DNA of 64,000 nt from an uncultured Acidobacteriota bacterium. Lineage in GTDB: Bacteria > Acidobacteriota > Thermoanaerobaculia > Gp7-AA8. Of the stretch, positions 17,708 to 37,020 are shown piece after piece. The first letter of the stretch is position 1; every line of letters begins with the position of its first letter. The stretch is taken from positions 1,195,967 through 1,259,966 of the forward strand of contig CAWGHO010000001.1 in the NCBI GenBank assembly GCA_963822445.1, given 5' to 3'. The notes under the pieces are model-generated. The model made no database searches. It was given only the letters and a program-made list of their open reading frames with translations, and was not told the origin of the DNA. The position numbers and the translations under genes are program-made.

Positions 17708-18616
17708 ATGATCCTGGCGGCGATTGCGACCTGGCTGACTCTGGCGCCAGTGCTCGTCCCGCGGCAGGAAGTGGCGGTCGCGGCGGTCAACGGGAAGGTC
17801 TACCTGATCGGCGGGATCGCCGCGGATCAATCCATCCTCGATTCCGTCGAGGAGTACGACCCGGCCACGAATTCCTGGCGCTTCATCGCGCCGCTGCCAC
17901 GGCCGCGGCATCACACGGCGGCGACGGTCGTCGGAACGGACATCTACGTGATCGGCGGTTTCGGTCCGTTCGGCTTCCAGCCCGAGCGCAACGTGTATCG
18001 ATACGAGTCGCGGTCGGGCCAATGGTCGGAAGTTGCGCCGTTGCCGGTATCGCGCGGCGCTCTCGCGGCGGTGACGATCGAGGGGAAGATCTACGCGGTC
18101 GGTGGCGTCCCGGGTTCCGGTCGCGATCTGACGATGTACGACCCGACTACGAACACGTGGACATCGCGGGCGTCGATGCCCACCGGGCGCGAGCACCTTT
18201 CCGCGGCGACGATCGACGGGAAGTTGTACGTGGCGGGCGGACGGCTTGGCGCGAATACGGATGCGTTCGAGCGATACGACCCCGTCACGAACACGTGGAC
18301 GGTGTTGCCACCGCTTCCGACCGCGCGCGGCGGACTCGCGGCGGCGGCTGTCGGGTCCCGGATTTACGTGTTTGGCGGGGAAGGCAATCCATCAACGGCG
18401 ACGGGCGTGTTCGAAGAGAACGAATCGTTCGATGTGGTCAGCGGGACGTGGCGAGCCGAGGTGCCGATGGCCTTTCCGCGACATGGCATCGGCGCGGTGT
18501 CGATCGGGAATCGCATCTACATTCCGGGAGGTGCGCCGGTGCAGGGATTCGGCACGACGAACGTGCACGATGTGCTGGTGATCGACGCGCCGCGGCGAAG
18601 GTCAGTGCGGAAGTAG
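17708..18616 (+). CDS. Kelch-repeat beta-propeller protein
   Basis: 302-aa ORF with six repeats of the form …IYVIGG…YDPxTNxW…. Confidence 0.8.
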   Translation: MILAAIATWLTLAPVLVPRQEVAVAAVNGKVYLIGGIAADQSILDSVEEYDPATNSWRFIAPLPRPRHHTAATVVGTDIYVIGGFGPFGFQPERNVYRYESRSGQWSEVAPLPVSRGALAAVTIEGKIYAVGGVPGSGRDLTMYDPTTNTWTSRASMPTGREHLSAATIDGKLYVAGGRLGANTDAFERYDPVTNTWTVLPPLPTARGGLAAAAVGSRIYVFGGEGNPSTATGVFEENESFDVVSGTWRAEVPMAFPRHGIGAVSIGNRIYIPGGAPVQGFGTTNVHDVLVIDAPRRRSVRK

Positions 18617-18689: not shown

Positions 18690-19439
18690 TTACACAACCG
18701 CTCCCATGTTCTCCTCGAGGTGCTTCACCTTCGAGGTCCCCGGAATCGGCAACATCACCGGCGATCGCTCGAGGAGCCATTGCAGCGCCTCGCGCGCCGA
18801 TACCTTCAGTTTCCCCACCTGCAGCGGATACCAGGGGATGAAGGCGATGTTCTCGCGCTCGCAGTAATCGAGGACGTTCTCCCACTCACGGTCTTCGAGG
18901 TTGTAGCGGTTCTGCACGGACACGACATTGAAGTGTTTCCGCGCGCGCTCGATCTGCTCGATGGTCACTTCGGAAAGACCGAGGTGGCGGACCTTGCCTT
19001 CGCGCTGAAACTCGACCAGCGCGCCGAACTGCTCCTCCTCGGGGACCTCGTCGTCGATGCGATGCAGTTGAAAGAGATCGATCCGGTCGAGCTTCAGCCG
19101 CCGCAGGCTTCCTTCGAGACCTTCGCGCAGCCGCTCGGGCCGGCAATTCACGACCCACTCGCCCGGACCGGGACGATCGAAGCCGGACTTAGTCGCGATC
19201 ACCAGCCCATCCGGATACGGATGCAGCGCTTCGGCGATCAACTCCTCCGAAACGTACGGGCCGTACGACTCCGCGGTGTCGATGAGGTTGACGCCGAGCT
19301 CCACCGCGCGGCGCAGGACCGCCAGCGCTTCCTCGCGATCGCGCGGCGGTCCCCACACCCCTTCACCGGTGATGCGCATGGCGCCGAAACCGAGGCGGCG
19401 GACGGGAAGATCGTTGCCGAGGAGAAAGGTGTCGTTCAC
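18690..19439 (-). CDS. Aldo/keto reductase family oxidoreductase
   Basis: Motifs [33 protein letters not shown]. Its ATG overlaps the stop of the upstream gene as ATGA. Confidence 0.75.
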
Positions 19440-20656
19440 TTCCGCGGAACTATAACCGTCGCCGTCTTCGTCGCGGCATTGCCCGAGGCATCCTTCACTT
19501 CGACAGTGATCGTGTACGTGCGGCCGGGGCCTTTGCCCCCGCGTTCCGCGCGCAGCTCGATGGTCAGAGATCCGGTGATGTTGATGTCGTTCGCCGTGTC
19601 GCCGTCGCCGAGTCCGTTGTCAGGCTCGCTGCTGGTGACGCTGATGATCCTCGCGACCGGCGCGGGATCGACGTCGTCCATCGCGAAGACGCTCACCGTG
19701 ACCGGCACCATCTTGTGATTCGGAACACTGAGCACTGAAGGCGATGGCGTGACGCTGACGATCACCGGCGCCGTCGTATCAGTCGGGGTCGGATTGATCT
19801 GAAGAGCGTAGTGATCCGTGCTGCAGCCACCGATCGTGTGCAACTCGTCGTCGTCGAAAACAGCCGCGTAGTTGCCGGCCTGCGGCGGCGCGGGCGCGAC
19901 CTGCGTCCACGTTCCACCGTTCAGGCGATACACGCCGGCATCGAGCAGGACGTGAAGGTCGCCGCCGACCACACCGCCCGCGTAAGCGTTGCTCGCGAGC
20001 GGCAGGGCCGGGCCGCTGCTCCAGGTGCCGATCAGCGGATCGAAGACGTCGATGGTGGCGATCGGTGAGACCCCGTCGTTCCCGCCGATGACCCAAAGCT
20101 TGCCGCCGTGATTGACCACCACCGGATCGATGCGTCCGGTCGGCAGGCTGGCGAAGACGAAGAAGGTGTATGGGCCGGGCTGGAATCGCGTGGCAATCGT
20201 GGCCGGGCCGAAAAAATCACCGCCGAAAACGTAGACGTACGTGCCGAGGGGAATCGTTCCGACGCTGGAGATCGGCAGCGGATAGTTCACGACGTTGAGC
20301 GTCCACGAGTCGCCCGTCGCGTTGTAGATGTCGACGGACTGCGCGTTCGTCCCGTTGTTCAGATTCTTGCCGCCGAAGAAGTAGACGTTGTCGCCGAGAA
20401 CAGCATTCGAGTTCAGATTCGTGCGGCCGACGGGACGCGGATTCGGTGCATTGGCCGACCAGGTGTTGCCGCTAAGGCTGTACTCGTCGTGGTTTGCGCC
20501 GTCGACGAGCACGATGGAGTTGTTGACGATGGCGATTCCGGATCCGCCCGCGCATCGCGCGGCGGGCAGCGGCGCGCGCGGCGTCCACCCGGCGGCGCCT
20601 GCGCTCACGGCGATCAGGGACACTGAGATCACACAGGAAACGAGACTCTTCCGCAT
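19436..20656 (-). CDS. Secreted Kelch-like beta-propeller protein with a C-terminal Ig/cadherin-like domain
   Basis: Start set at [23 protein letters not shown] (signal peptide) rather than the upstream in-frame 20878. Kelch-like GG repeats. C-terminus …[17 protein letters not shown]. Confidence 0.65.
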
Positions 20657-20743
20657 TGCTGCTCTCCTTCTCTCCGTAGGACCGTGGGTATGGCTCGACA
20701 TATTACGTCCGCTGGCGCCGGCCGGATGCATAGAATCGAAACG

Positions 20744-22189
20744 ATGTCCGCGGTGCTCGCCCTCGACGCCGGAACCACCAGTTCCCGCGCGCTCGTCTTC
20801 GATGAGCGCGGCGGGATCCTCGCGGTCGCACAGCGGGAGTTCCGGCAGCTCTATCCGCAACCTGGGTGGGTCGAGCACGATGCCGAGGAGATCTGGCGGA
20901 CGCAGATCGAGGTGGCGGCGGAGGCTGTCGCCGCGTCAGGCGTGGACATCGGCTCGATCGGGATCACCAACCAGCGCGAGACGACGGTGTTGTGGGATCG
21001 CGAGACCGGGAAACCGGTCGCGAACGCGATCGTCTGGCAGGACCGGCGAACCGCGGAGATGTGCGACGCACTGCGAAGCACGGGGCACGAGGAGCTGATC
21101 CGCGCGCGCACCGGATTGGTCATCGACGCGTACTTCTCCGGCACGAAGCTGCGCTGGCTGCTCGACCGAACTACGGCCGATGTGTCGCGCCTCGCTTTCG
21201 GAACGATCGACTCCTGGCTGGTCTGGAACCTGACTCGCGGTGCGGCGCATGTCACCGACGTGACCAACGCCTCGCGCACGATGCTGTTCGACATTCATCG
21301 CGCGGCCTGGGACGACGAGCTGTTGTCGATCATCGGCATCCCGCGATCGGTGCTGCCCGAGGTGCGCTCGTCGAGCGGGATGTTCGCGCGGACCGCGGAG
21401 GGTCTACCGATTCCGGCCGGCATCCCCATCGCCGGAATCGCGGGCGATCAACAGGCCGCGCTCTTCGGCCAGCGCTGCACGCGCGCGGGTATGGCCAAGA
21501 ACACGTACGGAACGGGATCGTTCGTGGTGATGAACACCGGCGCGAAACCGGCGATCTCCTCACACGCGCTCCTGACAACGATCGCCTGGCGCCTCGGCAA
21601 TGAGCCGATGCACTACGCGCTCGAAGGCAGCATCTTCGTCACCGGCGCGGCCGTGCAGTGGCTGCGCGATCAGTTGCACATCATCAAAACCGCGTGTGAT
21701 GTCGAAGCGCTGGCCGCGTCAGTCCCCGACACCGGCGGCGTGGTCGTCGTTCCCGCGTTCACCGGCCTCGGCACACCACACTGGGACCCCTACGCCCGCG
21801 GCGCAATCCTCGGCCTGACGCGCGGTTCCTCCGCCGCGCACATCGCGCGGGCCACGCTGGAGTCGATCGCGCTGCAGACCGCGGACGTCCTGCAGGCGAT
21901 GCGCGACGACTCCGGAATCGAGCTGACCGAGATGCGGGTCGACGGCGGCGCGTCGACGAACGATCTGTTGATGCAGATGCAGGCCGATCTCGCCGGCATC
22001 CCAGTCGTACGTACGCGCAATCCGGAAGTGACGGCGCTGGGTGCCGCGTATCTGGCCGGGCTCCCTGCGCCTGACCTGCAGGCCACGCCCGATCGCGTGT
22101 TCGAGCCGCGCATGAGCAGCGCGGAACGCGAGGAGAAGATCGTCGTGTGGCGAAGGGCGGTGGAGCGCACGAAGGGTTGGGCGTCGTAG
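20744..22189 (+). CDS. glpK: Glycerol kinase
   Basis: Start [20 protein letters not shown]…, plus [12 protein letters not shown] and the FGGY-family N- and C-terminal domains. Confidence 0.9.
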
Positions 22190-22312: not shown

Positions 22313-23779
22313 GTGCGCATCATCGGCACAGGTCTTCGGGGCCCGGTCCGCGTCCTCTTCGACGTCCGCCAACCGCTACCGGTCGAAGCATTCGTCATCG
22401 GGCGGACCGACACGGAAATCGAAATCCTCACGCCGTCCATCAATTTGCTGGTCGGGCAGCAGCTCGCAGCGACGATTCGCGTCGTCACCGCTGCGGGGAC
22501 GAATTCTGAGCAACACCTGACGTTGCACGAGGGGTTCACCTTCCGCAGAGATATCCTCACGCCGCGGATCGTCACGCTCGCTCCCAACTCGGGATCTGTT
22601 GTGGGCGGGTTGCGTGTGACGATTTTCGGCGACGGCTTCCAGGCGCCGGTGCAGGTCATGGTGTTCACCGACGATGCTCCGCTCGGCGCCGAGGCGCGCG
22701 TCATGAACGTGCAGTTCGACCAGATCGTGATCGAGATGCCCTCGGCAAACGACGCGCGCGCCGTCGCAGGCCAACCGATCCACGTCCGCGTGCGGAACAT
22801 CAACTCGGGCACGGACGCGGTGCTGCGCAACGCGTTCGTTTACCGGCCGCCCATCGAGATCACGTCCATCTCCCCCACCATCGGTCCGGCTGACGGCGGA
22901 ACGGAGCTGCACATCACCGGCATCGGCTTCGAGAATCCGTCGATCGTGCTCGTGGGCAACATTCCCGCGCTGGTGTTGCGCATCTCCCCGACGCTGATCG
23001 TCGCGAGAACGGGGCGTCTGGAAACGACGACCTGCAGCGACATGACCGCGGCGGTGCGGGTCATCGACATCAACAAGGGCTACTTCGCCGACGGACCTCC
23101 GTTCACGTATTCCGTGAGCAGGCCGGTCATCCTCGACGTTGCGCCACGGATCGCCGAGGTCGGCACGATGGTGGAAGTCGACCTGGTGAATGCCAACGGC
23201 ATGAACGCGATGGTGAGCCTGGGCGGCGAAACCTTTTCCGCGCCGATCTCCGGCTCGAAACTGAACTTCTTCGTCCCTGCTTCACTGCCCTTCCACCAGA
23301 CGCCCTGCACGCTCGAAGGAATCGACGGAACCGGCCCGGCAGCCTTCGTCGCCGATCTGACCATCACCGATGCCGCGGGATGCACGATCGTCGAACCGTC
23401 CGCCATCACGGTGCTGCCCGCGGCTCACACGCTCTGCACGATTCCGCCCTCCGCCCAAGTGATCGCACCGGACGAAGGACACTGCCTCCGCTTCGGACGA
23501 AACAAACCGCGAACGCGAACGATCTCCATCCTTAATCGCGACCTCCCCGGCCGCTCGCCTCTGTACGTGACCGGCATGTCCCTCACCGGCCCGGCCGCCG
23601 CGGAGTTCGTGCTCGTACGCACATCACCGAATGCCTTTGCCGAACCCGGCGAGACGATCGACTTCGACGTGACGTTCACAGGCGAGGTAGAAGGCTACCG
23701 CGCCGCCAGAGCGACGTTTCACACGAACGATCCGGAGAGGCCGGTGGTCTCTGTGTGTTTGAGTGGGTTTAGGTACTAG
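22313..23779 (+). CDS. Surface protein with multiple IPT/TIG domains; true start probably further upstream
   Basis: Repeated IPT starts (…ITSISPTIGPADGGTELHITGIGF…). An in-frame signal-peptide-like segment LLSLLFCFVAWSAAADV extends upstream to the glpK stop without an ATG, suggesting a non-canonical start or an indel. Confidence 0.6.
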   Translation: MRIIGTGLRGPVRVLFDVRQPLPVEAFVIGRTDTEIEILTPSINLLVGQQLAATIRVVTAAGTNSEQHLTLHEGFTFRRDILTPRIVTLAPNSGSVVGGLRVTIFGDGFQAPVQVMVFTDDAPLGAEARVMNVQFDQIVIEMPSANDARAVAGQPIHVRVRNINSGTDAVLRNAFVYRPPIEITSISPTIGPADGGTELHITGIGFENPSIVLVGNIPALVLRISPTLIVARTGRLETTTCSDMTAAVRVIDINKGYFADGPPFTYSVSRPVILDVAPRIAEVGTMVEVDLVNANGMNAMVSLGGETFSAPISGSKLNFFVPASLPFHQTPCTLEGIDGTGPAAFVADLTITDAAGCTIVEPSAITVLPAAHTLCTIPPSAQVIAPDEGHCLRFGRNKPRTRTISILNRDLPGRSPLYVTGMSLTGPAAAEFVLVRTSPNAFAEPGETIDFDVTFTGEVEGYRAARATFHTNDPERPVVSVCLSGFRY

Positions 23780-23783
23780 TTGC

Positions 23784-23865
23784 GGGGTTGCGGGGTTTCG
23801 GGGTTACGAGGGAGTCACCCCACTGCTAACCCCGTAACCTCGTGACCCCGAAACCCCGTCACCCC
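23784..23865. other. G4-forming G-rich tract followed by a C-rich tract, together forming a 21-bp near-perfect inverted repeat (terminator-like hairpin)
   Basis: GGGG-TTGC-GGGG-TTTC-GGGG-TTACGA-GGG (23784-23812), then CCCC runs through 23865. The arms CGGGGTTTCGGGGTTACGAGG and CCTCGTGACCCCGAAACCCCG lie immediately after the TIG-protein stop (23777-79). Confidence 0.7.
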
Positions 23866-23898
23866 TGCTACCATCACCAAACACAGAGAGGACAATTC

Positions 23899-26021
<2,123 letters not shown>

Positions 26022-26025
<4 letters not shown>

Positions 26026-27554
26026 CGAACCGTCACGCCGGCGCTGAACTCGGTGATGTACATGTCGGGCGCGTCGAGAAACTCGGCTGAGCTGACGAGC
26101 GCGGTCACGATCTGCCCGCGCAGGTCTTCGCGGATCTCCACCGCGAATGAAAAGTTGTCGCCCGTGGGCAGGCCCGAAGCTGACACATACCGCTGCCCCT
26201 CTGCATTTCCGCTCGGATTCAAGGCGGGCGAAACGTAAATCCAGACGGACCTCTTCGGCCCAGTCACGCTTCGCGGCGGAAAGGTTCCCCTCACAACGGT
26301 CACGGCCCTTTGCGCATCGTAGTAAGCGTCGGTGATCGTGGGCCGCGGACGGATCCGCGGATCGGTGTCGGACGACGGACCATCGAGACCCCAATCGATG
26401 CCTGTGATTCCGTTCGAATGCATCGAACCGGTGAATGACGCGTTTCTGAGATGGGTCGCCAGGGCCAGGCCGAATTCACCGTTGTGCGCGATCTCCGTCG
26501 AGCTCACCAGCATGGCGCCGAAGGCCGCGAACACGCCGCTCGCTCCGTTGCCGAGGACCTTCGATGACGACAGGTGCGTAATGCCATTCCAGTGGAAGAT
26601 GCCCGAGCGCCGATTGCCGCTGATCAGGCAATTCCGCACTTCGACGTAGCCGGCCTCGCGGAACACGCCGACACCGCGCGTATTCGGCCGCGCGATTTTC
26701 CCGGTGATGTCCGTGCCGAGGAAGAGGCCGGTCAGGTGCACGTTCGGACCGCGGTCGCGAATGAGCACCGCGTAATCGGGGAAGTCGTTGATGGCCAGGT
26801 CTTCCAGATGCCACGCGCCGAAACACTTCGTGGCGCCGAACTCGAAGCCGCTGCCGGTGGTGAGCCTGCGTCCGGTGATCTCGAGGCGGCGGTCGCCGGT
26901 GATCTGCGCATTCGCGCGCATCTCCACGTTGCAACTGGTGATGACCGGGAGAGGCGTCAGCAGCTCGATGGTCGAATACTGCGGAAGGTCGAAGAGGATC
27001 CTGCAGGTGCTGTTGTCGCCGCAGTGTTCGTTGCTCTCGGTGATGACCGTTCGCAGCGTGTCCGGTCCTGAATCGGCGGTCGACCGGACGATGTAGGTCC
27101 CGAACGTCGTCGCCCGAACCTGGGCCGTGGCCTGGCTGAACGTCTTCGGCGGCTCCACCGTCGCTGTTGCCACGGCCGAGAAGTGCATGCCCCGTTGATC
27201 GGACGGGAGCTCGATGCTGATCTTCACTCCCTGAGCAGTCGACGTCACGGGAAGGGACGCGCGCGTGCAACGAACGTCGTTCGCTCCCAGGACGCACTGC
27301 CACTCGTCGCTTTCCGGCGCGATGGAGACGCGTCCGGGCGGCACAGGGATGCGCATGGCCACGTTCCTCCCCGGCTCGCCGCCGGTGTTCCGGATGACCG
27401 CGCGATACGTGATGGTCGTACCGGGCGAGACCGGCCCGCCGGGAGTGATGTCGACGAAGAAGTAGAGGTCGTCGACGGCCAGCGCGGAAAACGTGAGGAG
27501 GGAGGACAGAAGGACGAGGAGGACCCGGGACATGACACTGATAATACGGTTCAT
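26022..27554 (-). CDS. Secreted right-handed parallel beta-helix (pectate-lyase-fold) protein with an N-terminal DUF11-like Ig domain
   Basis: Signal peptide MNRIISVMSRVLLVLLSSLLTFSALA. Repeated NxxIxxN beta-helix rungs (VRNCLISGNRRSGIF…, …VSSTEIAHNGEFGL…). Confidence 0.7.
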
Positions 27555-28473
27555 GCTCGATCAACATCGCTGGCTTCTCTCCGATCGCGTCCGGACGCTC
27601 GCTTTCCGGGACGCGATCCACCAGCTGGTCAAGCCCGGCGACGTCGTAGTCGACCTGGGCAGCGGCTCGGGAATCCTCGCCTTCTTCGCGGCTGAGGCTG
27701 GTGCGGCGCGGGTTTACGCGATCGAGAAGCAGCACATCGCCGACGTGGCTTCGCTGGTCGCGCGGCACAACCGTTATCACGACCGGGTCGTCCTCCTGCA
27801 CGAGTACTCCCTGAAAACGACAGTGCCCGAGCGGGCGAATGTCCTCATCACCGAGACCCTCGGCAACTTCGGTCTCGACGAGCAGATCGCCGGACTGACC
27901 ATCGACGCGCGCGAGCGCTACCTGATGCCGGACGCGATCCTCATTCCCCAGCGCGTCGTGCTGTCCGCGGTTCCGGTCGAGCTTCTGGAGATGTTCGAGC
28001 GGCACATCGAGTGGTGGGGTGAATCGCGTTACGGCGTCGATCTCAAACCGCTGCGCACCTTCGCGTCGAACACGGTTTACGCCGCCGACGTCTCCGAGCG
28101 GGCGCATCTCGCCGCGCCGGCGACGATGGTCGACATCGATCTCCGAACGATAGAGACGTCCGATGCCGCTGGAAAGGCTGTCTTCATCGCGACCCGCGAC
28201 GGCGTGCTGCACGGATTTGCAGGCTGGTTTGCCGCCACGATCGCGCCGGGCATCGTCATCTCCAATCCCGCTCCGCACGACACGCACTGGCAGCAGGCTT
28301 TCCTGCCGGTCGAACATCCCGTCGAAATCAAACGCGGCGACCAGATCGAGCTCGAGTTGCAGACGCACGACGGGCGGGCCTGGCGGTGGCGCGGGCGCGC
28401 CGCGGAGCAGGAGTTCGATCAGACCACCTGGCTCTCCGCGCCTCCGTGCACCCTTCTCGGCGCGCGGGACTAG
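27532..28473 (+). CDS. Protein arginine N-methyltransferase (PRMT)-like class I SAM-dependent methyltransferase
   Basis: PRMT signatures: motif I VVVDLGSGSGILAFFAAEAGAARVYAIE, double-E loop VLITETLGNFGLDEQ, and a THW loop at PAPHDTHWQQAF. The N-terminus HRWLLSDRVRTLAFRDAI aligns with the eukaryotic PRMT pre-motif-I helix. The start overlaps the divergent beta-helix gene start. Confidence 0.75.
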   Translation: MTLIIRFMLDQHRWLLSDRVRTLAFRDAIHQLVKPGDVVVDLGSGSGILAFFAAEAGAARVYAIEKQHIADVASLVARHNRYHDRVVLLHEYSLKTTVPERANVLITETLGNFGLDEQIAGLTIDARERYLMPDAILIPQRVVLSAVPVELLEMFERHIEWWGESRYGVDLKPLRTFASNTVYAADVSERAHLAAPATMVDIDLRTIETSDAAGKAVFIATRDGVLHGFAGWFAATIAPGIVISNPAPHDTHWQQAFLPVEHPVEIKRGDQIELELQTHDGRAWRWRGRAAEQEFDQTTWLSAPPCTLLGARD

Positions 28474-28483
28474 AATTCGCGGC

Positions 28484-29611
28484 ATGTACAGGGCCGCACT
28501 GCTTTTCGTCCTTCTCCTTCCCACGTTTGCATTCGCCCAGGGCCGCCGCGATGGCGACTGGCGTGAGTTTCCCGCGCAGAAAGGGTGCGTCGGCGGCAGC
28601 CGCTGCGCCGACAAGCGCTTCCGCATCGCGCTCGATGACAGGCCGGTCATCGCCGTGCGATTCAGAGCGCATGATCAAATCGGCGAGACGGCCGGCGGCG
28701 TGTTGCGGGTGAAGATCGACGGCGACACGATCCGCGGCTACCTCGATATCCCCCGCGCCGGCGAGCTGTTCACGATCGACGTGGACGAGCTTCGCGGACG
28801 GCAGCTCGTGTTCGAGCCGGTCGCGAATGATGAAGTCGAGATCTCCGACATCGCGGTCATGTACAGCCGCGAGAATACGATCCGCCGCATCCCCGAGGCT
28901 CGTCGGGGCGGGCGGGGCGGCGGCGGACCGGGATGGCGCTCGTATCCGAATGCCTCCGGTTGCATCGGCGGCGACGGCTGCCGCCAGAACGGCACCCGCA
29001 TCACCATCCCTCTCGAAGAAGCCCCGGTCCTCGGCATCCGCTTTCACGCCCACGACAACGTCGGCAAACGCGCCGACGGCAAGCTGAGCGTGCGCATCGA
29101 CGACACGACCATCGGCTGGTCGATCGACGTGCAGCGCAACGGCAAGCGCCATGACGTCGAGGTGGACAACGTCCGCGGCACGCGACTGGTGATCGAGACG
29201 GCGAACGACGACGAAGTCGAAGTCAGCGACGTCGAAGTGCTTTACGGCCGCCGCGGCGGAGTGGGCAGCAATGGCCCGCGCGAGATCGAGCACGAAGGCG
29301 GATGCATCGGCGGATCGGAATGCGGCGGCCGCCGCAATCGCATTCGCGTGGCCCTGCGCGATTACCCCGTCGAATCGATCCGCTTCTACGCCCGCGACGA
29401 CGTCGGCACCAGGGCCGGCGGCGAGCTCCGCATCCGCATCGACGAGGAGATCCTCCGCGATTACCTCGACATCCCCCGCGAAGGCCGCACCTTCACCATC
29501 GACGGCAAAGGCCTGGTCGGCGAGTACCTGATCATCGAGACGACCGAGGATGACGAAGTGGTGATCCGGGACATCAAGGTGAAGTTCGGGACGGGGGAGT
29601 ACGACGATTAG
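28484..29611 (+). CDS. Secreted protein built from three ~120-aa internal repeats, function unknown
   Basis: Signal peptide MYRAALLFVLLLPTFAFA. Each repeat has the form GC(V/I)GG…C…R(I/F)…D.PV..IRF.A.D.(G/V)…G.L.(V/I)(K/R)ID…I……DI.R.G..F.ID……G..LV.E…DE(V/E)(E/V).SD(I/V)…. Confidence 0.7.
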   Translation: MYRAALLFVLLLPTFAFAQGRRDGDWREFPAQKGCVGGSRCADKRFRIALDDRPVIAVRFRAHDQIGETAGGVLRVKIDGDTIRGYLDIPRAGELFTIDVDELRGRQLVFEPVANDEVEISDIAVMYSRENTIRRIPEARRGGRGGGGPGWRSYPNASGCIGGDGCRQNGTRITIPLEEAPVLGIRFHAHDNVGKRADGKLSVRIDDTTIGWSIDVQRNGKRHDVEVDNVRGTRLVIETANDDEVEVSDVEVLYGRRGGVGSNGPREIEHEGGCIGGSECGGRRNRIRVALRDYPVESIRFYARDDVGTRAGGELRIRIDEEILRDYLDIPREGRTFTIDGKGLVGEYLIIETTEDDEVVIRDIKVKFGTGEYDD

Positions 29612-29955
29612 GGGCGCGGAGTTGATTGCGCGTATCGCTACGGGCAATCCGGGTACGCGCCTGGATAAATCGCTTTTCCATTCTGGGGCGTGATCGCGTT
29701 CTGCAGGTAGGCGACTGAAGCGACAATTCCTTAGCCAGTTCAGATTGGCTTGAACACGCGCAATGATTGCAACCCCGCTCGCAAGAACCGCCTATACGTG
29801 CGACCAAAGGCGGTATGGCAGAGTGCCCATCCTGCTGCACCCGACCTTCGTAAGGCGCCGGTTTGGGCTGAGTCCCAAGGTGCACGCGTCGTACTTCAGA
29901 ACAAACCGCACTTCTATACGCAGCCTAAATTCGAGTTATGCCGACGAACCGGAGA

Positions 29956-29962: not shown

Positions 29963-29982
29963 AGACGTAAGATAAGCGACGC

Positions 29983-30603
29983 ATGAAATTGATTGCGATA
30001 CTTGAATCATGGGTCATTCCCGACGGAAGTTACCCTCCATTCGCTGTCGGAATGCCGGTAAACCTGTCTTTCGAGATGGCAGTGCGACAGATCTCTATCA
30101 ACGCCGCAGCTGAGGATTCGTTCGAATCGAATGGAGAGGGCGAGTACTCGTTTGCGGGCCGGGTTCTCGCAAAGTACAACGGTGGCGATCCGCTCGCGGT
30201 GGTCGAAGCAAGCGGGTTCCGCTTCTTCCTCGAAGGCACGCGCGCGCAGGAACTTCGCCCCGGTGAACGCGTTCAGGGACTAGGTTCTTTGGTGGTCGAC
30301 TACTACATATGGGTCGAATACGTCAACGAACGTCGTGAGGCGCCGGACCTTTTCTACAACTTGGGCGTTCGCCGTATTCGGCGCGTCCAGATTCCGGATT
30401 CTCTCGTCAGCCGTCACGCCACAGGCAAGGCGCTTCCTGCCCGAGTCGCGCCATCGGAGTTCGGCGCAATCACCGAGTTGCAGACAATGGTCGGACAGGA
30501 ATTTGACGAAGAGTTCTATCTCCTCGACCTAGAAACGACCGATCTAGCAGTGCCGCGGACTTTCTCGGGTGAGCCCCGCGAGTTCCGCCTTGAACGCAGG
30601 TGA
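29983..30603 (+). CDS. Cassette ORF of unknown function (206 aa)
   Basis: Intact ORF, GC about 50-55% against about 69% background. I found no recognisable motifs. Confidence 0.55.
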   Translation: MKLIAILESWVIPDGSYPPFAVGMPVNLSFEMAVRQISINAAAEDSFESNGEGEYSFAGRVLAKYNGGDPLAVVEASGFRFFLEGTRAQELRPGERVQGLGSLVVDYYIWVEYVNERREAPDLFYNLGVRRIRRVQIPDSLVSRHATGKALPARVAPSEFGAITELQTMVGQEFDEEFYLLDLETTDLAVPRTFSGEPREFRLERR

Positions 30604-30658
30604 TCACGGATGAGCGTACTTGTGCGAAAATGCGTAATGCCAGCTGAGGTTCACACTG

Positions 30659-31036
30659 TTGGATTCCGCCGAGATTGAACGAGCTGTTTGGGTTGCGACA
30701 GGCGTCGCGGCAATCACCGCGGCTCTGCTCACAGTCGTTGTGTATTACCTTCAACAACTTACCGTCGCCACCACCGGCATGCGCGTGCTTGGCAGCGTTG
30801 CCGCTTTGCTTCTGTCGTTCGGCGTCTACATCTTTGCGGCAGTCGTATTTTCTATCGTCATAAACGCACAGTTGCGGCAGACGAGTTCCGAGGGAGCGTT
30901 GAGCGTGCCTTGGTCAACTGTCTTCATTCACCCAGGGCCCTTGCACAAACTGGCACCCCTCTTCGCAATAGCTGCAACTTGGGCAACTCTTGCTTTCGTC
31001 GCTAGGCGACACCGTTCGCGAGAAATCGCTGGCTAA
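30659..31036 (+). CDS. Cassette ORF, small membrane protein (125 aa, 2-3 TM helices)
   Basis: Hydrophobic helices AVWVATGVAAITAALLTVVVYYL and LGSVAALLLSFGVYIFAAVVFSIV. The stop TAA is embedded in the attC inverse core GGCTAAC. Confidence 0.55.
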   Translation: MDSAEIERAVWVATGVAAITAALLTVVVYYLQQLTVATTGMRVLGSVAALLLSFGVYIFAAVVFSIVINAQLRQTSSEGALSVPWSTVFIHPGPLHKLAPLFAIAATWATLAFVARRHRSREIAG

Positions 31037-31968
31037 CTGTTGCGTCTCAGGACGTTGTTCCGATCCAGGCGACTGATGGGTGGATTGTAAGAGAGCGCGG
31101 TATGCGCTCGGTGGTAGTTGTAGAAGTGAAGGTACGGTGCGAGCCAACGGCGCCGTTCCTCGGAGCTGTGGTACGAGAACCGATAGGCCCATTCGCGCAG
31201 CAGCGTCTGGATGAACCGCTCCGCTTTACCGTTCGTCCGTGGTGTGTACGGCCGGATGCGGACGTGAGTGAGGTTCAGGCGGCTGCAGGTATCCCGGAAG
31301 TCGCGTGAGATGAAGGCCGATCCGTTGTCGGTCATCACCCGCTCGACGATGACATTCCGCTGAGCGAACCACGCCACCGCCCGAGTCAAAAACGAGCTGG
31401 CAGTCTCGCTACGCTCATCTGCCAGGACGTCGACGTAGGAGAGTCGGGTGAAGTCATCCGTCGCGACGTACACGAACTCGAAGCCCTGCTTCTTTGAGCC
31501 AAACGATCGACGCCTGGTGATGCGGTGTCCCACTCGATTGAACCGTCCCAGGCGCTTGATGTCGATGTGCACCAGTTCCCCCGGACGCTCCTTCTCGTAC
31601 CGAATTGGCACTGTTGCCGGCTCAAGCTGACGCAACCGAGCCAGCCCTGCTGACCGGCAGATCCGCGCTGCTGTCGACGCACTCACGCCCACTGCCTGCG
31701 CGATCTGTCGCACAGTCCGCCATTCGCGGCGAAGACTCAGAACACGCTGTCGTTTTATGTCGCTCGTGGCCCGGCCCCTGTGCGGTCTGGAGCTCCGATC
31801 GTTAAGCGGCTCGACCCTCAGACCACGACGGATCCACTCCCGCCCTCGCCGGTCACTCATACCGGCGGCCTCCGACGCCTCGCGCACCGACCATCCTTGT
31901 TCGCAGACTCGCTTGACCAGCAGTGCTCGACTCAACGGGCAGCTTCGCGCATTCTTGTGCACGTCCAT
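31033..31968 (-). CDS. IS481-family DDE transposase (integrase-core type)
   Basis: 311-aa ORF with an N-terminal helix-turn-helix and an rve integrase core (…HIDIKRL…VYVATDDFTRLSYV…TDNGSAF…). Its TAG stop lies in the duplicated target (plus-strand cta at 31033-35), as is typical for IS481. Confidence 0.85.
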   Translation of the reverse strand: MDVHKNARSCPLSRALLVKRVCEQGWSVREASEAAGMSDRRGREWIRRGLRVEPLNDRSSRPHRGRATSDIKRQRVLSLRREWRTVRQIAQAVGVSASTAARICRSAGLARLRQLEPATVPIRYEKERPGELVHIDIKRLGRFNRVGHRITRRRSFGSKKQGFEFVYVATDDFTRLSYVDVLADERSETASSFLTRAVAWFAQRNVIVERVMTDNGSAFISRDFRDTCSRLNLTHVRIRPYTPRTNGKAERFIQTLLREWAYRFSYHSSEERRRWLAPYLHFYNYHRAHTALSYNPPISRLDRNNVLRRNS

Positions 31969-32071
31969 CTGGGTTCCTTCCTGTCAACCTGTTCGTTTGA
32001 GAGCTTTCAGATTGACGAAAGTCGCCCGGATGGACAACCCGCTTCAAGGAACAACGTCCTGACACATCACA
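31038..32071 (-). mobile_element. IS481-family insertion sequence (1034 bp) with 25-bp imperfect terminal inverted repeats and a 6-bp target-site duplication GCTAAC
   Basis: Left end TGTTGCGTCTCAGGACGTTGTTCC; reverse complement of the right end TGTGATGTGTCAGGACGTTGTTCC. Flanking direct repeats GCTAAC at 31032-37 and 32072-77. It is inserted exactly in the attC R'' core. Confidence 0.8.
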
Positions 32072-32129
32072 GCTAACTACTGCCAGGAGCTGTCGGCGGG
32101 CCGTTCGCCGCGCCCGGCGGCCGAGCCGC
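32072..32129 (+). other. attC A, left (R''-L'') portion, between the two IS insertions
   Basis: GCTAAC-TACTGCCAGGAGCTGTCGGCGGGCCG…GCGGCCGAGCCGC. Together with 31031-31037 it reconstitutes GGCTAACTACTGCCAGGAGCTG, homologous to the left ends of attC B and C. Confidence 0.6.
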
Positions 32130-33456
32130 ATTCGCATTAAGTTAAGAGCCGGCGTACCCTAAGTGTATGAATCGACGGGTGGATGAGCGGGAGTGGATTC
32201 AGTATCAATGGGACTATCTGGTGGCGCTGCTGGGTGGCAAGCGGCGCATTGAGCGGCTGGCGTATGAGACCGGTGCATTTACGCGACGGCGGAAGGTCGA
32301 TAGTCCAAGTGATCTGCTGCGTCTGATCTTCACGTGGGCGGTTGCCGAACGGTCGTTGCAAGAGACTGCGGCCTTGGCTGCCGAGTCGGAACTGGCGGAT
32401 CTGAGCGCGCCCGCTCTGCTGGGCCGATTCTCACAGGCCGAGGCGTGGCTCGGGGCAGTTCTGGGTGATCTGCTCGCTGCGCGGAGCGCGGTCACCTACC
32501 GGGTACCGACGTCCGGTTAATCGATGCCACCTCAATCAGTTGCCGTGGCAGCAACAACACCGAGCGCCGGGTCCATCTCGCGCTGGATCTACGTACGAAC
32601 CGCACCACAGCGGTCGACCTCTCTGACCGGCACGGAGGCGAGACGCTGGAGCGCTTTGTCTTTCGTCCAGGGGAGATCGTGATTGCCGATCGCGGATATG
32701 CGAAGCGTAAGGACGTTGCGCACGTGTCGCGAAGCGGTGCATGGTTTGTGATCCGGATCGGCTGGACCAACCTGCCGCTCGAGCATCTGGACGGGGAACC
32801 TTTCGACCTGATTGGAACGCTTGGCGGCCTCCCTGAGGCGGCGGCTGCAGAGTTTTCCGTTCAGATTCGTACGGCGAAGGATGCGTTGGTGCCGTGCCCT
32901 GGTGGCTGTACGGAAGAGCGAACCAGCCGCCGAGCGCGCACGGCAGCAGATCCTCGCCGACGCCCGACGGCACGGCAATCCGCAGGTCGACCTGCGCACA
33001 CTCGAAGCCGCGGGGTGCATATTCGTCATCACCAATTTGCCCAACGAGATCTCGCCGAGAGCGTGCTGGAGCTCTATCGCCTACGGTGGCAGATCGAGAT
33101 CAAGTTCAAGACCCTCAAGTCCGTACTTCACCTCGGAAACCCGCCGACCCGAAGCGGCGAGCTGCTGAACGTTTATCTCATGGCGAAGCTGATCGTTGCG
33201 CTGCTGATCGAGGAGTTCATCTATCAGGCCGAGTCTATTTCCCCCTGGGGATACCCGCTCGAGGCCAATACAACCGTGGCGGCTGACGCGACTCCTGCTT
33301 GAAGCTGTGATCGCCGCAATCCGGCCAGTGCTGTCGCTGCGACTCCGCTGGAGTCGGCCCCTTCGCTGTTCCCGTCATCTTGCCCAAGCGAATAGAAGTC
33401 GACCAAACCAGCGCACGTCGGCACGCTACGTTACTGGAGACATAAGTTAATGCGAA
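32130..33456 (+). mobile_element. IS4-family insertion sequence (1327 bp) with 17-bp imperfect terminal inverted repeats and a 13-bp target-site duplication
   Basis: Left inverted repeat ATTCGCATTAAGTTAAG; reverse complement of the right end ATTCGCATTAACTTATG. Direct repeats GCGGCCGAGCCGC at 32117-32129 and 33457-33469. Confidence 0.75.
32167..33302 (+). pseudogene. IS4-family DDE transposase, one frameshift near 32470-32517
   Basis: N-terminal piece 32167..32520. Continuation LIDATSISCRG…IVIADRGYAKR…YRLRWQIEIKFKTLKSVLHL (DDE_Tnp_1 signature) runs in another frame from about 32517 to 33302. Confidence 0.7.
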
Positions 33457-33579
33457 TGCGGCCGAGCCGCCTACCACGTCCCGCGATGCACGGCGTCACG
33501 CCGCTTGCAACCGCGTCAACGTCAAATGCGGCAAGCGGCGTGCCGCGACTGCTCGCTCGCACGTGGGGCCTCGCCGCAG
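33457..33579 (+). other. attC A, right (L'-R') portion, ending in the core GTTCGTC
   Basis: …ACGGCGTCACGCCGCTTGCAACCGC…CCGCAGCTCAGGCGATAGAC-GTTCGTC is homologous along its length to attC B (…ACGGCGTCACGGCGGTTGCAGG…GCGCAGCTCAGGCGATAGAC-GTTAGCC). Confidence 0.6.
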
Positions 33580-34011
33580 CTCAGGCGATAGACGTTCGTC
33601 GAGAAGCACCCTTTCCATGAACGCTTCGTATCTCGCACGTTGAACGCGTGCGTGGCGCGGCGCCGCGCCCAGGCGACGCGGACGCACGACTTCCAACCGC
33701 GCACAATTCGCTCGATGAAATAGACGGAGGTTTGCGAATCGGTTCGGGCAACATGGCAAAGCGCCAAGCGCCCCATCGGTGGCATCTTCAATCTAGCGCA
33801 TCTCACGCGATCACCCTACTGTCCGCATGCCATTCAAACCGCGCAATAGACGGCGACCTCTATCGTTGCGGTGGTCGCTAAGCCAGTGCGTCTATTGGTT
33901 ATTCGGTCGACGAACACAAAAAGCTTAAGGTGGCTTTATGGGAGCCCGACCGCGCCTGACTCACGCCGCAGGCCGAGTGTCGGACGATCACATGCTATTC
34001 TTGATCTGCCG

Positions 34012-34545
34012 ATGCAGAGCTCGAGAGGCATAGTTGTACGTGCAGCGACTTGGGTGGTCGCGGCCTTCCTTGCTTCGGGGTTCCAATTTTCAACCTCCGC
34101 GCAGGAATCGCAGCGTCTCACGGCAAGCGATGCATTCGCCATGTACTCATCGATGCTTGCCGAGATTTCACACGCGTCGCTCGACGACTTTAAAACTGTC
34201 ATCGGCTTGCTTGAACGAGACGGCTTCCGAAAGGCGTCCGACAACTCCTGGCGTTTCCGAAACGAAAGCGGCAGCGTCGTCGTCGCCGCGTACCCAGAGC
34301 AGGGATCGTACTTTGTCTCGCTTGCGCCCAAGAATACAGGTCCGTTCGGCGATGCTGCTCTGGCCGCCCTGATAGCCAAGGCGGAGGCAGTCATGCTCGA
34401 CAGCGGCGGACAATCCATCGAGATATTGCTTCGCCGATCGAACCAGCAACGTCTTGGGAAGACCGTCGAGGTCAGCGAGTACATCTACGTCGCCCTGAAT
34501 GGTGCCATCTGGTGGCGAACGTCACGCGCAATCGTATGGCGCTAA
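34012..34545 (+). CDS. Cassette ORF: secreted or periplasmic protein of unknown function (~177 aa)
   Basis: Start chosen at MQSSRGIVVRAATWVVAAFLASGFQFSTSAQ (signal-peptide-like); the tool's ORF begins at a GTG at 33871. Stop TAA at 34543-45, just before the attC. Confidence 0.5.
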   Translation: MQSSRGIVVRAATWVVAAFLASGFQFSTSAQESQRLTASDAFAMYSSMLAEISHASLDDFKTVIGLLERDGFRKASDNSWRFRNESGSVVVAAYPEQGSYFVSLAPKNTGPFGDAALAALIAKAEAVMLDSGGQSIEILLRRSNQQRLGKTVEVSEYIYVALNGAIWWRTSRAIVWR

Positions 34546-34550
34546 ACGCG

Positions 34551-34748
34551 GCATAACTACTGCCAGGAGCTGTCGCGGCCCGGCTTCGGTCCGCCGGCCG
34601 AGCCGGCTGCTTTTTCGCCAGAGGGACGGCGTCACGGCGGTTGCAGGTCGCCACTCGCTGCATCGCAGTTCATTGGCGGCAACCGCCGCGCCGCTCCGGC
34701 TTCGGCGCGCGGGCCCTGGCCGCGCAGCTCAGGCGATAGACGTTAGCC
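34551..34748 (+). other. attC B (~200 bp): R'' GCATAAC … R' GTTAGCC
   Basis: The reverse complement of the left end, CAGCTCCTGGCAGTAGTTATGC, pairs with the right end CAGCTCAGGCGATAGACGTTAGCC with extrahelical bulges, an attC-like imperfect palindrome. Confidence 0.6.
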
Positions 34749-34847
34749 TGACACCGAGAGAGAGCGCCAGAACTCATACTTTCGAGCGCCGCATCCCGAT
34801 GACGTACTCGTGACGTAAGTCTCGGCACTCGTGTAAGATCGTTCGCA

Positions 34848-35072
34848 ATGCCACAAGCCTTCGACACCTCGCCGCGCGCAGCAGCCGTACACGCCCAGCT
34901 CTATCGTGACATCGGCCCAGCGAAGCGAGCTGAAATCATGGCGGAGCTCAGCGACGCGCTACGAGATCTCGCTGCGGCCGGCGTCCGGCGACGACATCCT
35001 GAGTACGATGACGAGCGTGTTCGAAAAGAAGTCCTCGCGGTCTTCTATGGCCGCGGTCGAACGTCGCTGTGA
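34848..35072 (+). CDS. Small cassette protein (74 aa), putative antitoxin partner of the downstream nucleotidyltransferase
   Basis: 4-bp ATGA overlap with the next ORF. The size and position match MenA-type antitoxins placed upstream of MenT-type toxins. Confidence 0.45.
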   Translation: MPQAFDTSPRAAAVHAQLYRDIGPAKRAEIMAELSDALRDLAAAGVRRRHPEYDDERVRKEVLAVFYGRGRTSL

Positions 35073-35626
35073 GCCTCCGAGACGCTTTTCGAAACATGCG
35101 AGATGCTCTTGAGGAGCTTGGAATACCGTACATGGTGACGGGTTCCGTCGCGAGCTCCGTGCACGGTGTTCCGCGAGCTACTCAAGACATCGATGTGATC
35201 ATCGAGCCGACACGTGACCAGCTAGTTGCGCTCTTAAACAGGTTTTCCGAACCAATCTACGACGCCGATCGCGACGACGCTTTGGATGCTCTCAATCGAC
35301 GATCAATGTTCAGCGTGATCGATCGCAGAGGCATATGGAAGATCGACTTCATCGTTCGCAAGCAGCGTCCGTTCAGTAAGAAAGAATTTGACCGACGGGT
35401 GAGAATCGATATTCTCGATGTTTTAGTGTATTCGGCGACACCGGAAGATGTACTCCTTGCAAAGCTCGAGTGGGCGAAATTGGGTGAATCCGAACGCCAG
35501 ATCCGTGATGCTGCAGGCATCATCGAAATTCAGGGCGAGAAGCTTGACCGTGAGTATGTGGAGCGGTGGGCCGCAGCCCTGGATATTGAGGATCAATTGC
35601 ACGCAGCACGAGCAAAGGCAGGCTAA
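35069..35626 (+). CDS. Pol-beta superfamily nucleotidyltransferase (185 aa), MenT/AbiEii-like putative toxin
   Basis: GSVASSVHGVPRATQDIDVII fits the hG[GS]x9-13DhD NTase motif, followed by KIDFIV (third acidic residue). The stop TAA lies inside the attC core GGCTAAC. Confidence 0.55.
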   Translation: MSLRDAFRNMRDALEELGIPYMVTGSVASSVHGVPRATQDIDVIIEPTRDQLVALLNRFSEPIYDADRDDALDALNRRSMFSVIDRRGIWKIDFIVRKQRPFSKKEFDRRVRIDILDVLVYSATPEDVLLAKLEWAKLGESERQIRDAAGIIEIQGEKLDREYVERWAAALDIEDQLHAARAKAG

Positions 35627-35794
35627 CTACTGCCCGAGGCTGTCGGAGAGCCGTCTGCCGCGCCCGGCGCTGAAGCGCCTCGTGAAGCGTTGCTTGCCCG
35701 CGGAAGGCCGGCCATCCCTACGCGCCACGGCGCCGAGGAGCGCGCCACGCAAACCCTACCCACGCGGAACCTCGCCGCATCTCACGCGTTAGAC
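35621..35794 (+). other. attC C (~170 bp): R'' GGCTAAC … R' GTTAGAC; last attC of the array
   Basis: GGCTAACTACTGCCCGAGGCTGTCGG … CGCCGCATCTCACGCGTTAGAC. More diverged than A and B, but the same architecture. Confidence 0.5.
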
Positions 35795-35853
35795 GCTGGA
35801 TTGCCCTCGATTCCGATAGCATCGAGCCCCGTAGCCGTCAGGGAGGGAGAAAG

Positions 35854-37020
35854 ATGACGTACCGCGTTCTTATATTCACCTTGCTCGCGCTCTGCGTGAG
35901 CGCAACCGCCGCGTCGCAGCCGGTCGTCGTCGGGCAAAGCCACCGCCTTCGTTCATCGGTCCTGAACGAAGACCGCACTTACCGCGTTCATCTTCCGGCG
36001 AGCTATGGATGGGCGAAGGATCGGCGATATCCGGTTCTGTACGTGCTCGATGGCGCGACGCATTTTCTGCACACGTCCGGGTCCGCCGGCTATCTCGCGG
36101 CGCAGGGCGAGATCCCGGAAATGATCGTGGTTGCGCTCGACAGCACCGTCCGGATCAGAGACTTCACCCAGTCGGACTGGTCGAGCGCATGGGTTGGAGG
36201 AGGGGGCGCGGCGAACTTCAAGCGCTTCCTTTCCACCGAGCTCATTCCGAACATCGAGCGCGCTTATCGCACCAACGGGTTCCGCGTGCTGGCCGGCCAC
36301 TCCGCCGGTGGACAGTTCGTCCTGTACTGCCTCACCTCCGAGCCGTCTCTCTTTCAGGCCTACATGGCGTTCAGCCCGAGTCTCGACTGGGACGACAACC
36401 TGCCCCAGAAATCGCTGGCCAAATCGTTCGACTCGACGCGCTCGCTGAAGGCGTTTCTGTACGTCGCGCGATCGGATGATTCCGGCCGCGCATTGGAGGA
36501 TTACGACCGGCTGGTGGAAACCCTGAAAACGAAATCGCCGCAGGGATTCCGCTGGCACAGCCAGCCCTATCCTGACGAAACCCACGGCAGCATTCCTTTG
36601 CTCGCACAGATCGATGCCCTTCGCCGACTGTACTCCGGTTACCGGTTTCACGGAGACCTGGTGTCGAAGGGCCTCGACTTCGCGGAGAAGCATTTCGAAG
36701 AGGTCTCCAGGACCGTGGGATGGCCTCTGCCCGTTCCCGAAAGCGTGATCAACGATTTCGGTTACGACGCGCTGGCGGCGGGGAAAACGGAAGCTGCCAT
36801 TACTCTCTTCACGCGCAACGTTCTGGCGAATCCGAATTCCGCCAACGCCTACGACAGTCTGGCGGACGCGTATGAAAAGGCGGAGAACTGGAAAGAAGCG
36901 GCAAAAGCAGCAGAGAAAGCCGCCGCTCTGGCTATAGAGTTCGACCTTGCCAACCGGGAGTACTTCATTCAGCACGCCGCAAAAATGAAGGCCCGGCTCG
37001 AACAGGAATCGAAACCATGA
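35854..37020 (+). CDS. Secreted 'putative esterase' family alpha/beta-hydrolase (enterochelin-esterase / esterase-D-like) with a C-terminal TPR region
   Basis: Signal peptide. YPVLYVLDGATHF, and GHSAGGQFVLYCL (a GxSxG nucleophile elbow). Confidence 0.75.
   Translation: MTYRVLIFTLLALCVSATAASQPVVVGQSHRLRSSVLNEDRTYRVHLPASYGWAKDRRYPVLYVLDGATHFLHTSGSAGYLAAQGEIPEMIVVALDSTVRIRDFTQSDWSSAWVGGGGAANFKRFLSTELIPNIERAYRTNGFRVLAGHSAGGQFVLYCLTSEPSLFQAYMAFSPSLDWDDNLPQKSLAKSFDSTRSLKAFLYVARSDDSGRALEDYDRLVETLKTKSPQGFRWHSQPYPDETHGSIPLLAQIDALRRLYSGYRFHGDLVSKGLDFAEKHFEEVSRTVGWPLPVPESVINDFGYDALAAGKTEAAITLFTRNVLANPNSANAYDSLADAYEKAENWKEAAKAAEKAAALAIEFDLANREYFIQHAAKMKARLEQESKP

Follow-up and report, generated by a model that had tools for sequence, protein, structure and literature searches.

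Protein arginine methylation by enzymes with a protein arginine methyltransferase (PRMT) fold is usually treated as a eukaryotic hallmark, and a bacterial gene whose product retains every catalytic residue of these enzymes raises the question of what it does in its host. The gene analyzed here lies on the forward strand, at 27553..28473, of a 64,000-nucleotide stretch of DNA (hereafter the window) from an uncultured Acidobacteriota bacterium of the lineage Thermoanaerobaculia; Gp7-AA8 (assembly GCA_963822445.1, contig CAWGHO010000001.1, positions 1,195,967 to 1,259,966). Judged by sequence, the window enzyme is part of a large bacterial radiation of PRMT-like enzymes. We consider it fairly probable that it is a stand-alone PRMT-fold enzyme that, with S-adenosylmethionine (SAM) as donor, methylates protein or peptide arginine at a terminal guanidino nitrogen.

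The PRMT core and its motifs

A phmmer search of the PDB returned 70 matches, the best 60 of which were all PRMTs, with E values from 6e-31 down to 1e-10. PRMT2 and PRMT6 led (E 6e-31 to 5e-30), followed by PRMT8, PRMT1, PRMT3 and CARM1, the values for PRMT6, 8, 1, 3 and CARM1 spanning about 1e-30 to 1e-24; PRMT9 and PRMT7 scored far lower, and PRMT5 was absent among the 60 matches listed. The Pfam family PRMT_C (PF22528) was matched over residues 146-283 with 62.2 bits against a cut-off of 27 (E 7e-17), and Rossmann-level Pfam matches to PrmA and others were weak. At the level of these comparisons chance is excluded as the source of the PRMT resemblance. The original prediction had named the protein a bacterial PRMT homologue from motif I, a double-E loop, a THW loop and a pre-motif-I helix; each of the four was found and lines up with the matching element of PRMTs, and the homology is borne out by the phmmer and Pfam scores and by the fold described below.

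Identity to eukaryotic PRMTs was 24-29%. In the alignment to PRMT1 (28% over 272 aa; the core used matches the PDB sequence end to end with 733 bits), H45, D51, R54, motif I, E144, E153 and THW of PRMT1 were all in register. Residues of the window protein are numbered here in a 313-aa frame, in which residue n starts at nucleotide 27532 + 3(n-1). Before motif I, HRWLLSDRVRT aligns with PRMT HEEMLKDEVRT, and the equivalents of helices alpha-Y and alpha-Z (27565..27627, +) were placed by alignment to PRMT1, 2 and 6 and by helices 2-17 and 19-32 of the predicted model. This region holds H12, L15 at the PRMT1 M48 position, D18 (PRMT1 D51) and R21 (PRMT1 R54, which contacts the SAM carboxylate); among 178 bacterial sequences the H, D and R were kept in 148, 165 and 167, respectively. 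VVDLGSGSG aligns with PRMT VLDLGCGTG within motif I (VVVDLGSGSG, 27643..27672, +), the SAM-binding glycine loop, whose D41, G43, G45 and G47 were almost invariant in the same 178 sequences. The post-I acidic residue E65 (27724-27726, +) was E or D in all of them.

The double-E loop, E108-T-L-G-N-F-G-L-D-E117 (27853..27882, +), corresponds to PRMT1 E144/E153 and to the equivalent positions of PRMT2 and PRMT6; ITETLGNFGLDEQ aligns with PRMT VSEWMGNCLLFEY with both glutamates in register. E108 and E117 were invariant in the 13-sequence alignment of the window's clade, and across the 178 bacterial sequences E stood at position 108 in 145 (with D in 24 others) and at position 117 in 141. The C-terminal PRMT beta-barrel (27967..28380, +) is the part covered by PRMT_C. 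It includes the equivalent of the dimerisation arm (about residues 150-180, 27979-28071, +), located by aligning HIEWWGESRYGVDL with PRMT1 KIHWWENVYGFDM and by model helices 152-158, 160-163 and 174-179, and the THW loop T251-H252-W253 (28282..28290, +), where THWQQA aligns with PRMT THWKQT and with the THW of PRMT1, 2 and 6. Family-wide, W of this loop was kept in 158 of the 178 sequences and H in only 65, with S at the H position in 61.

The order of elements is that of the eukaryotic type I core (PRMT1, 2, 3, 6, 8 and CARM1), namely alpha-Y/Z, Rossmann domain and barrel with arm, with motif I, the post-I acid, double-E, THW and the H45/D51/R54 equivalents shared. The window protein differs from these enzymes in having TETLG in place of SEWMG, L15 and I119 in place of PRMT1 M48 and M155, and no SH3, zinc finger or PH domain, as the original prediction had said of eukaryote-type accessory domains; its host is bacterial and its activity is a prediction. 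It also carries a conserved C-terminal segment, W-R-W-R-G...F-D-Q-T-T-W-L-x-x-P-P-C (28381..28449, +), that has no counterpart in the aligned PRMT1, PRMT2 and PRMT6 cores. This WxW/FDQ segment, S93, T109 and the lack of an alpha-X helix are the bacterial-specific features of the family.

An AlphaFold (AF2) model of the methyltransferase, built on 13 sequences, reached a pLDDT (predicted local distance difference test) of 89.9 and a pTM (predicted template modelling score) of 0.86, and showed helices, Rossmann strands, barrel and arm as expected. The 50 best Foldseek matches in the PDB were all PRMTs, PRMT6, 2, 8, 1 and 3 among them, with template modelling (TM) scores of 0.73-0.80 over 301-328 columns. 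The superposition on PRMT1 that had been proposed as a check gave TM 0.74-0.80 across solved PRMTs, PRMT1 included, and neither sequence, profile nor predicted structure placed the protein with generic small-molecule class I methyltransferases. That eukaryotic enzymes head the solved matches reflects the lack of any solved structure from the bacterial family.

Size, spread and phylogeny of the bacterial family

An exhaustive HMMER scan of 1.84 billion cluster representatives, with clusters defined at 50% identity, gave 10,432 matches at E <= 1e-3 and at least 1,295 at E <= 1e-30. Since eukaryotic PRMTs score about 110 bits, these 1,295 bacterial clusters are nearer to the window protein than is any solved eukaryotic PRMT. 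E values against bacterial cluster representatives were 1e-50 to 1e-98, and identity reached 51% at cluster level and 95% among close relatives. A pattern-based scan of one genome per species, 185,579 in all, found relatives in at least 153 species, and the genomes that carry them are all metagenome-assembled genomes (MAGs). The original prediction had called bacterial PRMT-like enzymes rare, which is true per genome and does not hold for the family with its 1,295 clusters. Nearest were species of Thermoanaerobaculia (47-64% identity); a Nitrospirales block came next (about 40%), and single examples belonged to Nitrospinota, Gemmatimonadales, Planctomycetota, Myxococcota, KSB1, Verrucomicrobiota, Oligoflexia, Gammaproteobacteria and Actinomycetes. 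On this distribution alone, Thermoanaerobaculia would be the most likely class of the window's host.

The gene is a further member of a family recognised by comparative genomics and database annotation: bacterial PRMT-like peptide methylases were previously described by Aravind and colleagues (PMC3417536), and relatives carry the JGI/NCBI names 'protein arginine N-methyltransferase 1' and 'type I protein arginine methyltransferase'. In a neighbour-joining tree, which is rough, star-like and without support values, eukaryotic PRMT1, 2 and 6 fell outside the sampled bacterial sequences, so that the phylogeny called for in the original prediction does not indicate a recent eukaryotic import. The window protein lay in a Thermoanaerobaculia clade lacking the C-terminal tail described below, amid tail-bearing lineages, and this clade appears to have been inherited vertically within one class.

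Relatives in lasso-peptide gene clusters

Lengths of 375-390 aa are common among the best cluster representatives, and in two a Pfam PqqD domain is fused to the core, N-terminally in P0160 and C-terminally in P0196. [quoted passage not shown] A hidden Markov model (HMM) built from four tails of about 75 aa detected a PqqD-like C-terminal extension of that length, following the WRW...PPC segment, in 74 of the 150 closest representatives. When 24 tails were scanned singly, 8 matched PqqD (best E 1e-4) and 7 matched, weakly, the PKMT_2nd winged helix (best E 0.011). The PqqD-fused enzymes have the same core as the window protein (36-45% identity, E about 1e-50 to 1e-70) and share with it the short N-terminus and the C-terminal WxW...FD(Q/H)(S/T)T; many are from Acidobacteriota. 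What sets them apart from it is a C-terminal winged helix of about 75 aa, or else a PqqD domain at the N-terminus, together with neighbouring lasso genes.

All 10 of the PqqD-tail relatives looked up (L100-L109) lay in lasso-peptide gene clusters. In nine, the PRMT-like gene adjoins genes for PqqD, Transglut_core3 (the leader peptidase) and Asn_synthase (the lasso cyclase); the tenth, L106, has a PqqD gene together with radical SAM/SPASM and ScmC-like ones. Genes for ABC transporters and for HPr-kinase-like and NTP_transf_5 proteins were frequent in these clusters, some of which hold two PRMT-like genes, the second being shorter (for example 339 aa at 13084-14103 of L101). A similar lasso-like context was seen at two more genome loci, L072 and L076. 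PqqD-fused PRMT-like enzymes, mostly from Acidobacteriota, are thus regular parts of lasso clusters. No published work on the implied methylation of lasso peptides was found in the literature, and modification of these peptides by PRMT-like enzymes is probably unexplored.

Small open reading frames (ORFs) with the lasso leader motif YxxPxLxxxG occur in the relatives' clusters and are candidate precursors: at about 4519 in L100, about 10301 in L101, 6715-6930 in L102, 6709-6864 in L103, 2124-2285 in L104, about 11506 in L105, 231-398 in L106, 5851-6030 in L108, 5695-5859 in L109 and about 3076 in L072. The predicted lasso core contains Arg in 7 of the 10 (for example RGRTGGDGSRKSL). With core boundaries uncertain, Arg-bearing candidate cores numbered 4 of 5 beside enzymes with E...E and 3 of 5 beside those with D...G/D; a clean correspondence between the two was not seen.

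In the neighbour-joining tree the tail-less Nitrospirales adjoin tail-bearing Nitrospirota sequences, which suggests that the PqqD-like tail was lost repeatedly. A separate variant was seen in PRMT-like cores L070, L071, L073 and L078, from Nitrospirae, Gammaproteobacteria, Deltaproteobacteria and Verrucomicrobiota MAGs, in which a SEC-C-type zinc motif (NDPCPCGSGKKYKKCC) replaces the PqqD-like tail.

A stand-alone enzyme without a lasso context

The tail HMM found no PqqD-like tail in the window's clade, and the window protein stops 7-8 residues past its PPC motif. Searches of the 64-kb window by tblastn with lasso proteins and by a precursor-motif scan detected neither lasso genes nor a lasso-type precursor, and a lasso or RiPP context for the gene was rejected on this ground. 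Because its clade lacks the PqqD-like domain and the window lacks lasso genes, the protein is read as a stand-alone enzyme that presumably recognises its substrate directly. No biosynthetic genes were found flanking it; its neighbours encode a beta-helix protein, a GAF histidine kinase, a TIG protein and a secreted protein of three repeats.

The three-repeat protein as a candidate substrate

The gene for the three-repeat protein (28484..29611, +; 375 aa with a signal peptide, residues 19-375 forming the mature protein) follows the methyltransferase stop codon. The gap between them, given as 11 bp in the original prediction, is 10 nt from the stop (28473) to the next ATG (28484). It is built of three beta-sandwich repeats of the jelly-roll/CBM-like kind, each about 115 aa long and with a conserved C-x-G-G-x-x-C pair, and its predicted model (pLDDT 82) drew Foldseek matches that include CBM22, CBM51, Vip3, BcsB and neuropilin b domains. 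No Pfam domain was found in its family, which comprises 406 members, every organism-named one from Thermoanaerobaculia.

Two Gly/Arg-rich linkers, disordered in the model, separate the repeats: linker 1 at residues 128-150 (28865-28933, +), with RRGGRGGGGPG, and linker 2 at residues 255-266 (29246-29281, +), GRRGGVGSNGPR; the linker peptides are EARRGGRGGGGPGWR and LYGRRGGVGSNGPRE. In 24 homologues the sequence and length of the linkers vary and their Gly/Arg richness is retained; Gly makes up 43% of linker 2 and Arg 29%, one example being GRGRRGGGGGGYGRG. Among 35 window genes, only that of the three-repeat protein encodes a dense RGG/GGR run. PRMT1 methylates glycine- and arginine-rich (GAR)/RGG motifs, which the linkers resemble.

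Pairing of the two genes was assessed in related genomes. A three-repeat gene lay on the same strand within 0-5 kb of the methyltransferase gene in 14 of about 30 genome loci, the 14 belonging to one Thermoanaerobaculia subclade. It was directly downstream in the window and in L002, L013, L014, L015, L021, L022 and L029; in the remaining paired loci it followed an FGGY sugar kinase gene or, in two cases, lay 4-5 kb away. In the window the FGGY kinase gene (20684..22189) is 5 kb upstream, with the TIG, GAF histidine kinase and beta-helix genes between. Approached from the repeat protein, 9 of 13 metagenome loci with enough upstream sequence had the methyltransferase within 5.4 kb. Among the 50 closest methyltransferase homologues, 21 had a longest contig of the same size, often 2-6 kb, as a repeat-protein homologue, and only 3 of the next 70 did so. 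The pairing is frequent in the window's subclade and not obligatory.

Several of these observations tell against a functional partnership. The other 4 of the 13 metagenome loci lacked the methyltransferase; in 11 Thermoanaerobaculia loci, forming a second subclade, a Kup K+ transporter gene is downstream instead; and the three-repeat gene was absent from all Nitrospirales loci, which share the unrelated neighbours MFS transporter, FAA hydrolase and LysM protein. The housekeeping FGGY kinase is linked to the methyltransferase to the same degree as the repeat protein is, so the synteny may be plain inherited gene order. Moreover, the repeat protein is exported while the methyltransferase has no signal peptide, and the GC content of 64% favours Gly and Arg codons in the linkers. 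No RGG-rich neighbours were found in other clades. Nothing firm about function was obtained from the neighbours, as the conserved ones vary by subclade; a mechanistic connection can be drawn for the repeat protein alone. We tentatively regard it as a candidate substrate or operon partner, a lead and not a result, and consider the substrate link rather unlikely.

Cytoplasmic methylation of exported bacterial proteins has precedents in flagellin and in the lysines of the rickettsial outer-membrane protein OmpB. The OmpB lysine methyltransferases PKMT1 and PKMT2, compared here by concept, provide an example of cytoplasmic enzymes that modify an exported surface protein; their target is lysine, whereas that predicted for the window protein is arginine.

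Alternative explanations

Arginine methylation of a protein or peptide is the reading favoured here, and four other accounts of the gene were weighed against it. Certain findings count against the favoured reading itself. Neither the THW histidine nor the second double-E glutamate is kept across the bacterial family. The alpha-X helix with YFxxY, in type I PRMTs of eukaryotes a cover over the cofactor, was not found in the window protein, in the optional upstream residues MTLIIRF or in any bacterial relative inspected; it is without counterpart because the first residue of the window protein corresponds to residue 41 of PRMT1. Three of the 10 candidate lasso cores have no Arg, with Lys instead, and the bacterial family may for this reason not be uniformly arginine-specific. 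A literature search found no experimental work on this bacterial family and no member with tested activity.

Some of the same findings would fit a PRMT fold acting on something other than protein arginine, be it free L-arginine or another guanidino compound, lysine or another nucleophile, which we regard as unlikely. SznE, of streptozotocin biosynthesis, acts on free L-arginine and is encoded inside a biosynthetic cluster. It is described as a bacterial arginine methyltransferase, characterised elsewhere, whose product is taken as omega-N-methylarginine (PMC12637814). The window gene is unlike that of SznE in having no biosynthetic neighbours. The missing alpha-X lid would suit such a substrate, as would the replacement of E...E by D...G/Q in some lasso-associated relatives whose candidate cores are without arginine. 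The window protein, however, retains both glutamates, THW and the D18/H252 pair, and the fusion of its relatives to a peptide-recognition domain indicates peptide substrates.

A second possibility, which we judge more doubtful still, is that of an orphan RiPP-tailoring enzyme that methylates a lasso or other ribosomal peptide from a distant cluster, with a separate PqqD-like protein recognising the leader. The lasso clusters of all 10 relatives looked up, the second, shorter PRMT-like gene in some of them and the position of the window's clade among tail-bearing lineages would agree with this. Against it, neither genes for PqqD, Transglut_core3 or Asn_synthase nor a YxxPxL-type precursor were found in the 64-kb window; about 45 Thermoanaerobaculia loci have housekeeping or unrelated neighbours (FGGY kinase, Kup, repeat protein) and never RiPP genes; and the clade is apparently inherited vertically within its class.

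The remaining two accounts were rejected as very improbable. NCBI calls four relatives (P0038, P0051, P0059 and P0111) '50S ribosomal protein L11 methyltransferase', and PrmA, which is likewise a class I SAM-dependent protein methyltransferase, gives weak matches across the Rossmann core; yet the PrmA equivalog model TIGR00406, whose cut-off is 183.15 bits, gives 33.8 bits and covers residues 29-109 only, for which reason the NCBI name is taken to be wrong, the C-terminal half is a PRMT beta-barrel, the L11-binding N-domain of PrmA is absent, and no PrmA chain appeared among the 60 listed PDB sequence matches or the 50 listed Foldseek matches. Recent horizontal acquisition of a eukaryotic PRMT gene, to which the eukaryotic best solved matches might point, is contradicted by the low identity, with similar scores to PRMT2, 6, 8, 1, 3 and CARM1, by more than 1,000 nearer bacterial clusters, by the tree, by a local GC content (64%) equal to that of the surrounding window and by the bacterial-specific features listed above.

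Gene start and surrounding DNA

The ORF of the methyltransferase runs on the forward strand from GTG 27493 or ATG 27532 to the stop codon at 28471-28473. The original prediction chose ATG 27532 and gave about 314 aa, a start that yields 313 aa. The second Met (MLDQHR/MLEYHR) is the first residue in 12 of 12 aligned homologues, and the database entry identical to the window methyltransferase has 306 aa; the start codon is therefore likely, from these comparisons, to be 27553, with a product of 306 aa. This start reduces the overlap with the divergent beta-helix gene, which had also been predicted, from 23 nt to 2 nt, and none is left if the beta-helix gene starts at its own second Met (27533).

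Two CATG palindromes (27531-27534 and 27552-27555) hold the start codons of the divergent methyltransferase and beta-helix genes, and the AT-rich 19-nt spacer between them, ACACTGATAATACGGTTC, can be read as a -10-like box on both strands. Because the start palindromes flank such a spacer, the arrangement suggests that both transcripts may be leaderless or near-leaderless. A consensus scan of 26800-30200 found no sigma-70 promoters or intrinsic terminators. An antisense ORF of 724 aa (26476..28650, -) extends over the full methyltransferase gene and into the genes on either side; it was rejected as a gene, being a shadow ORF typical of high-GC DNA (GC1 0.82, GC3 0.61). It misleads simple longest-ORF gene picking; genes were picked by a codon-position GC rule.

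The beta-helix gene (26022..27554, -) encodes a secreted protein of 510 aa that starts with a DUF11/NEW3-like domain and contains a right-handed beta-helix; the two were matched below Pfam cut-offs. No homologue of it was found in 80 related loci, and hence this gene, with those of the GAF histidine kinase (23842..26025) and the TIG protein (22313..23779), looks like a genome-specific insertion. A stretch of lower GC (30000..37000, 0.59-0.62) starts just downstream of the methyltransferase/repeat-protein pair and contains an IS481-family transposase gene (31033..31968, -) and a fragmented DDE_Tnp_1 transposase gene (32167..33302); small ORFs at 29983..30603 and 30659..31036 had no family match. 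Upstream of the FGGY kinase gene lie those of two Kelch-repeat beta-propeller proteins, 17708..18616 (+), with five strong repeats (E 2e-61), and 19436..20878 (-). Unrelated to the methyltransferase, 61487..62467 (+) encodes a 326-aa protein, possibly for defence or signalling, in which a TIR_2 domain (E 4e-13) at the N-terminus precedes a hydrophobic segment.

Proposed activity and its significance

Combined, the motifs and the predicted fold allow a working model of the window enzyme. It would act most likely as a homodimer and bind SAM in the Rossmann domain. The double-E glutamates E108 and E117, helped by the THW loop, would grip the side chain of a substrate arginine, and the methyl group would pass to a terminal guanidino nitrogen of this residue in a protein or peptide recognised directly, without a leader-binding domain. 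As the sequence is nearest to type I PRMTs, the predicted products are monomethyl-arginine and possibly asymmetric dimethyl-arginine. The best contextual candidates for a substrate would be the Gly/Arg-rich linkers of the three-repeat protein, methylated in the cytoplasm before export.

A fuller scenario, in which a stand-alone PRMT that evolved from lasso tailoring enzymes by losing their recognition domain methylates RGG-like linkers before export, is speculative and in our opinion rather unlikely as a whole. If true, linker methylation would be a bacterial counterpart of GAR methylation by PRMT1, on an extracytoplasmic protein.

The gene itself is one more member of a family already labelled PRMT-like in databases. 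The PqqD fusion and lasso context of about half of its closest relatives support the earlier proposal that eukaryotic PRMTs derive from bacterial peptide methylases. In the window, a small, domain-minimal enzyme with all the catalytic motifs adjoins its candidate substrate, and a simple assay could therefore establish PRMT-type methylation in bacteria.

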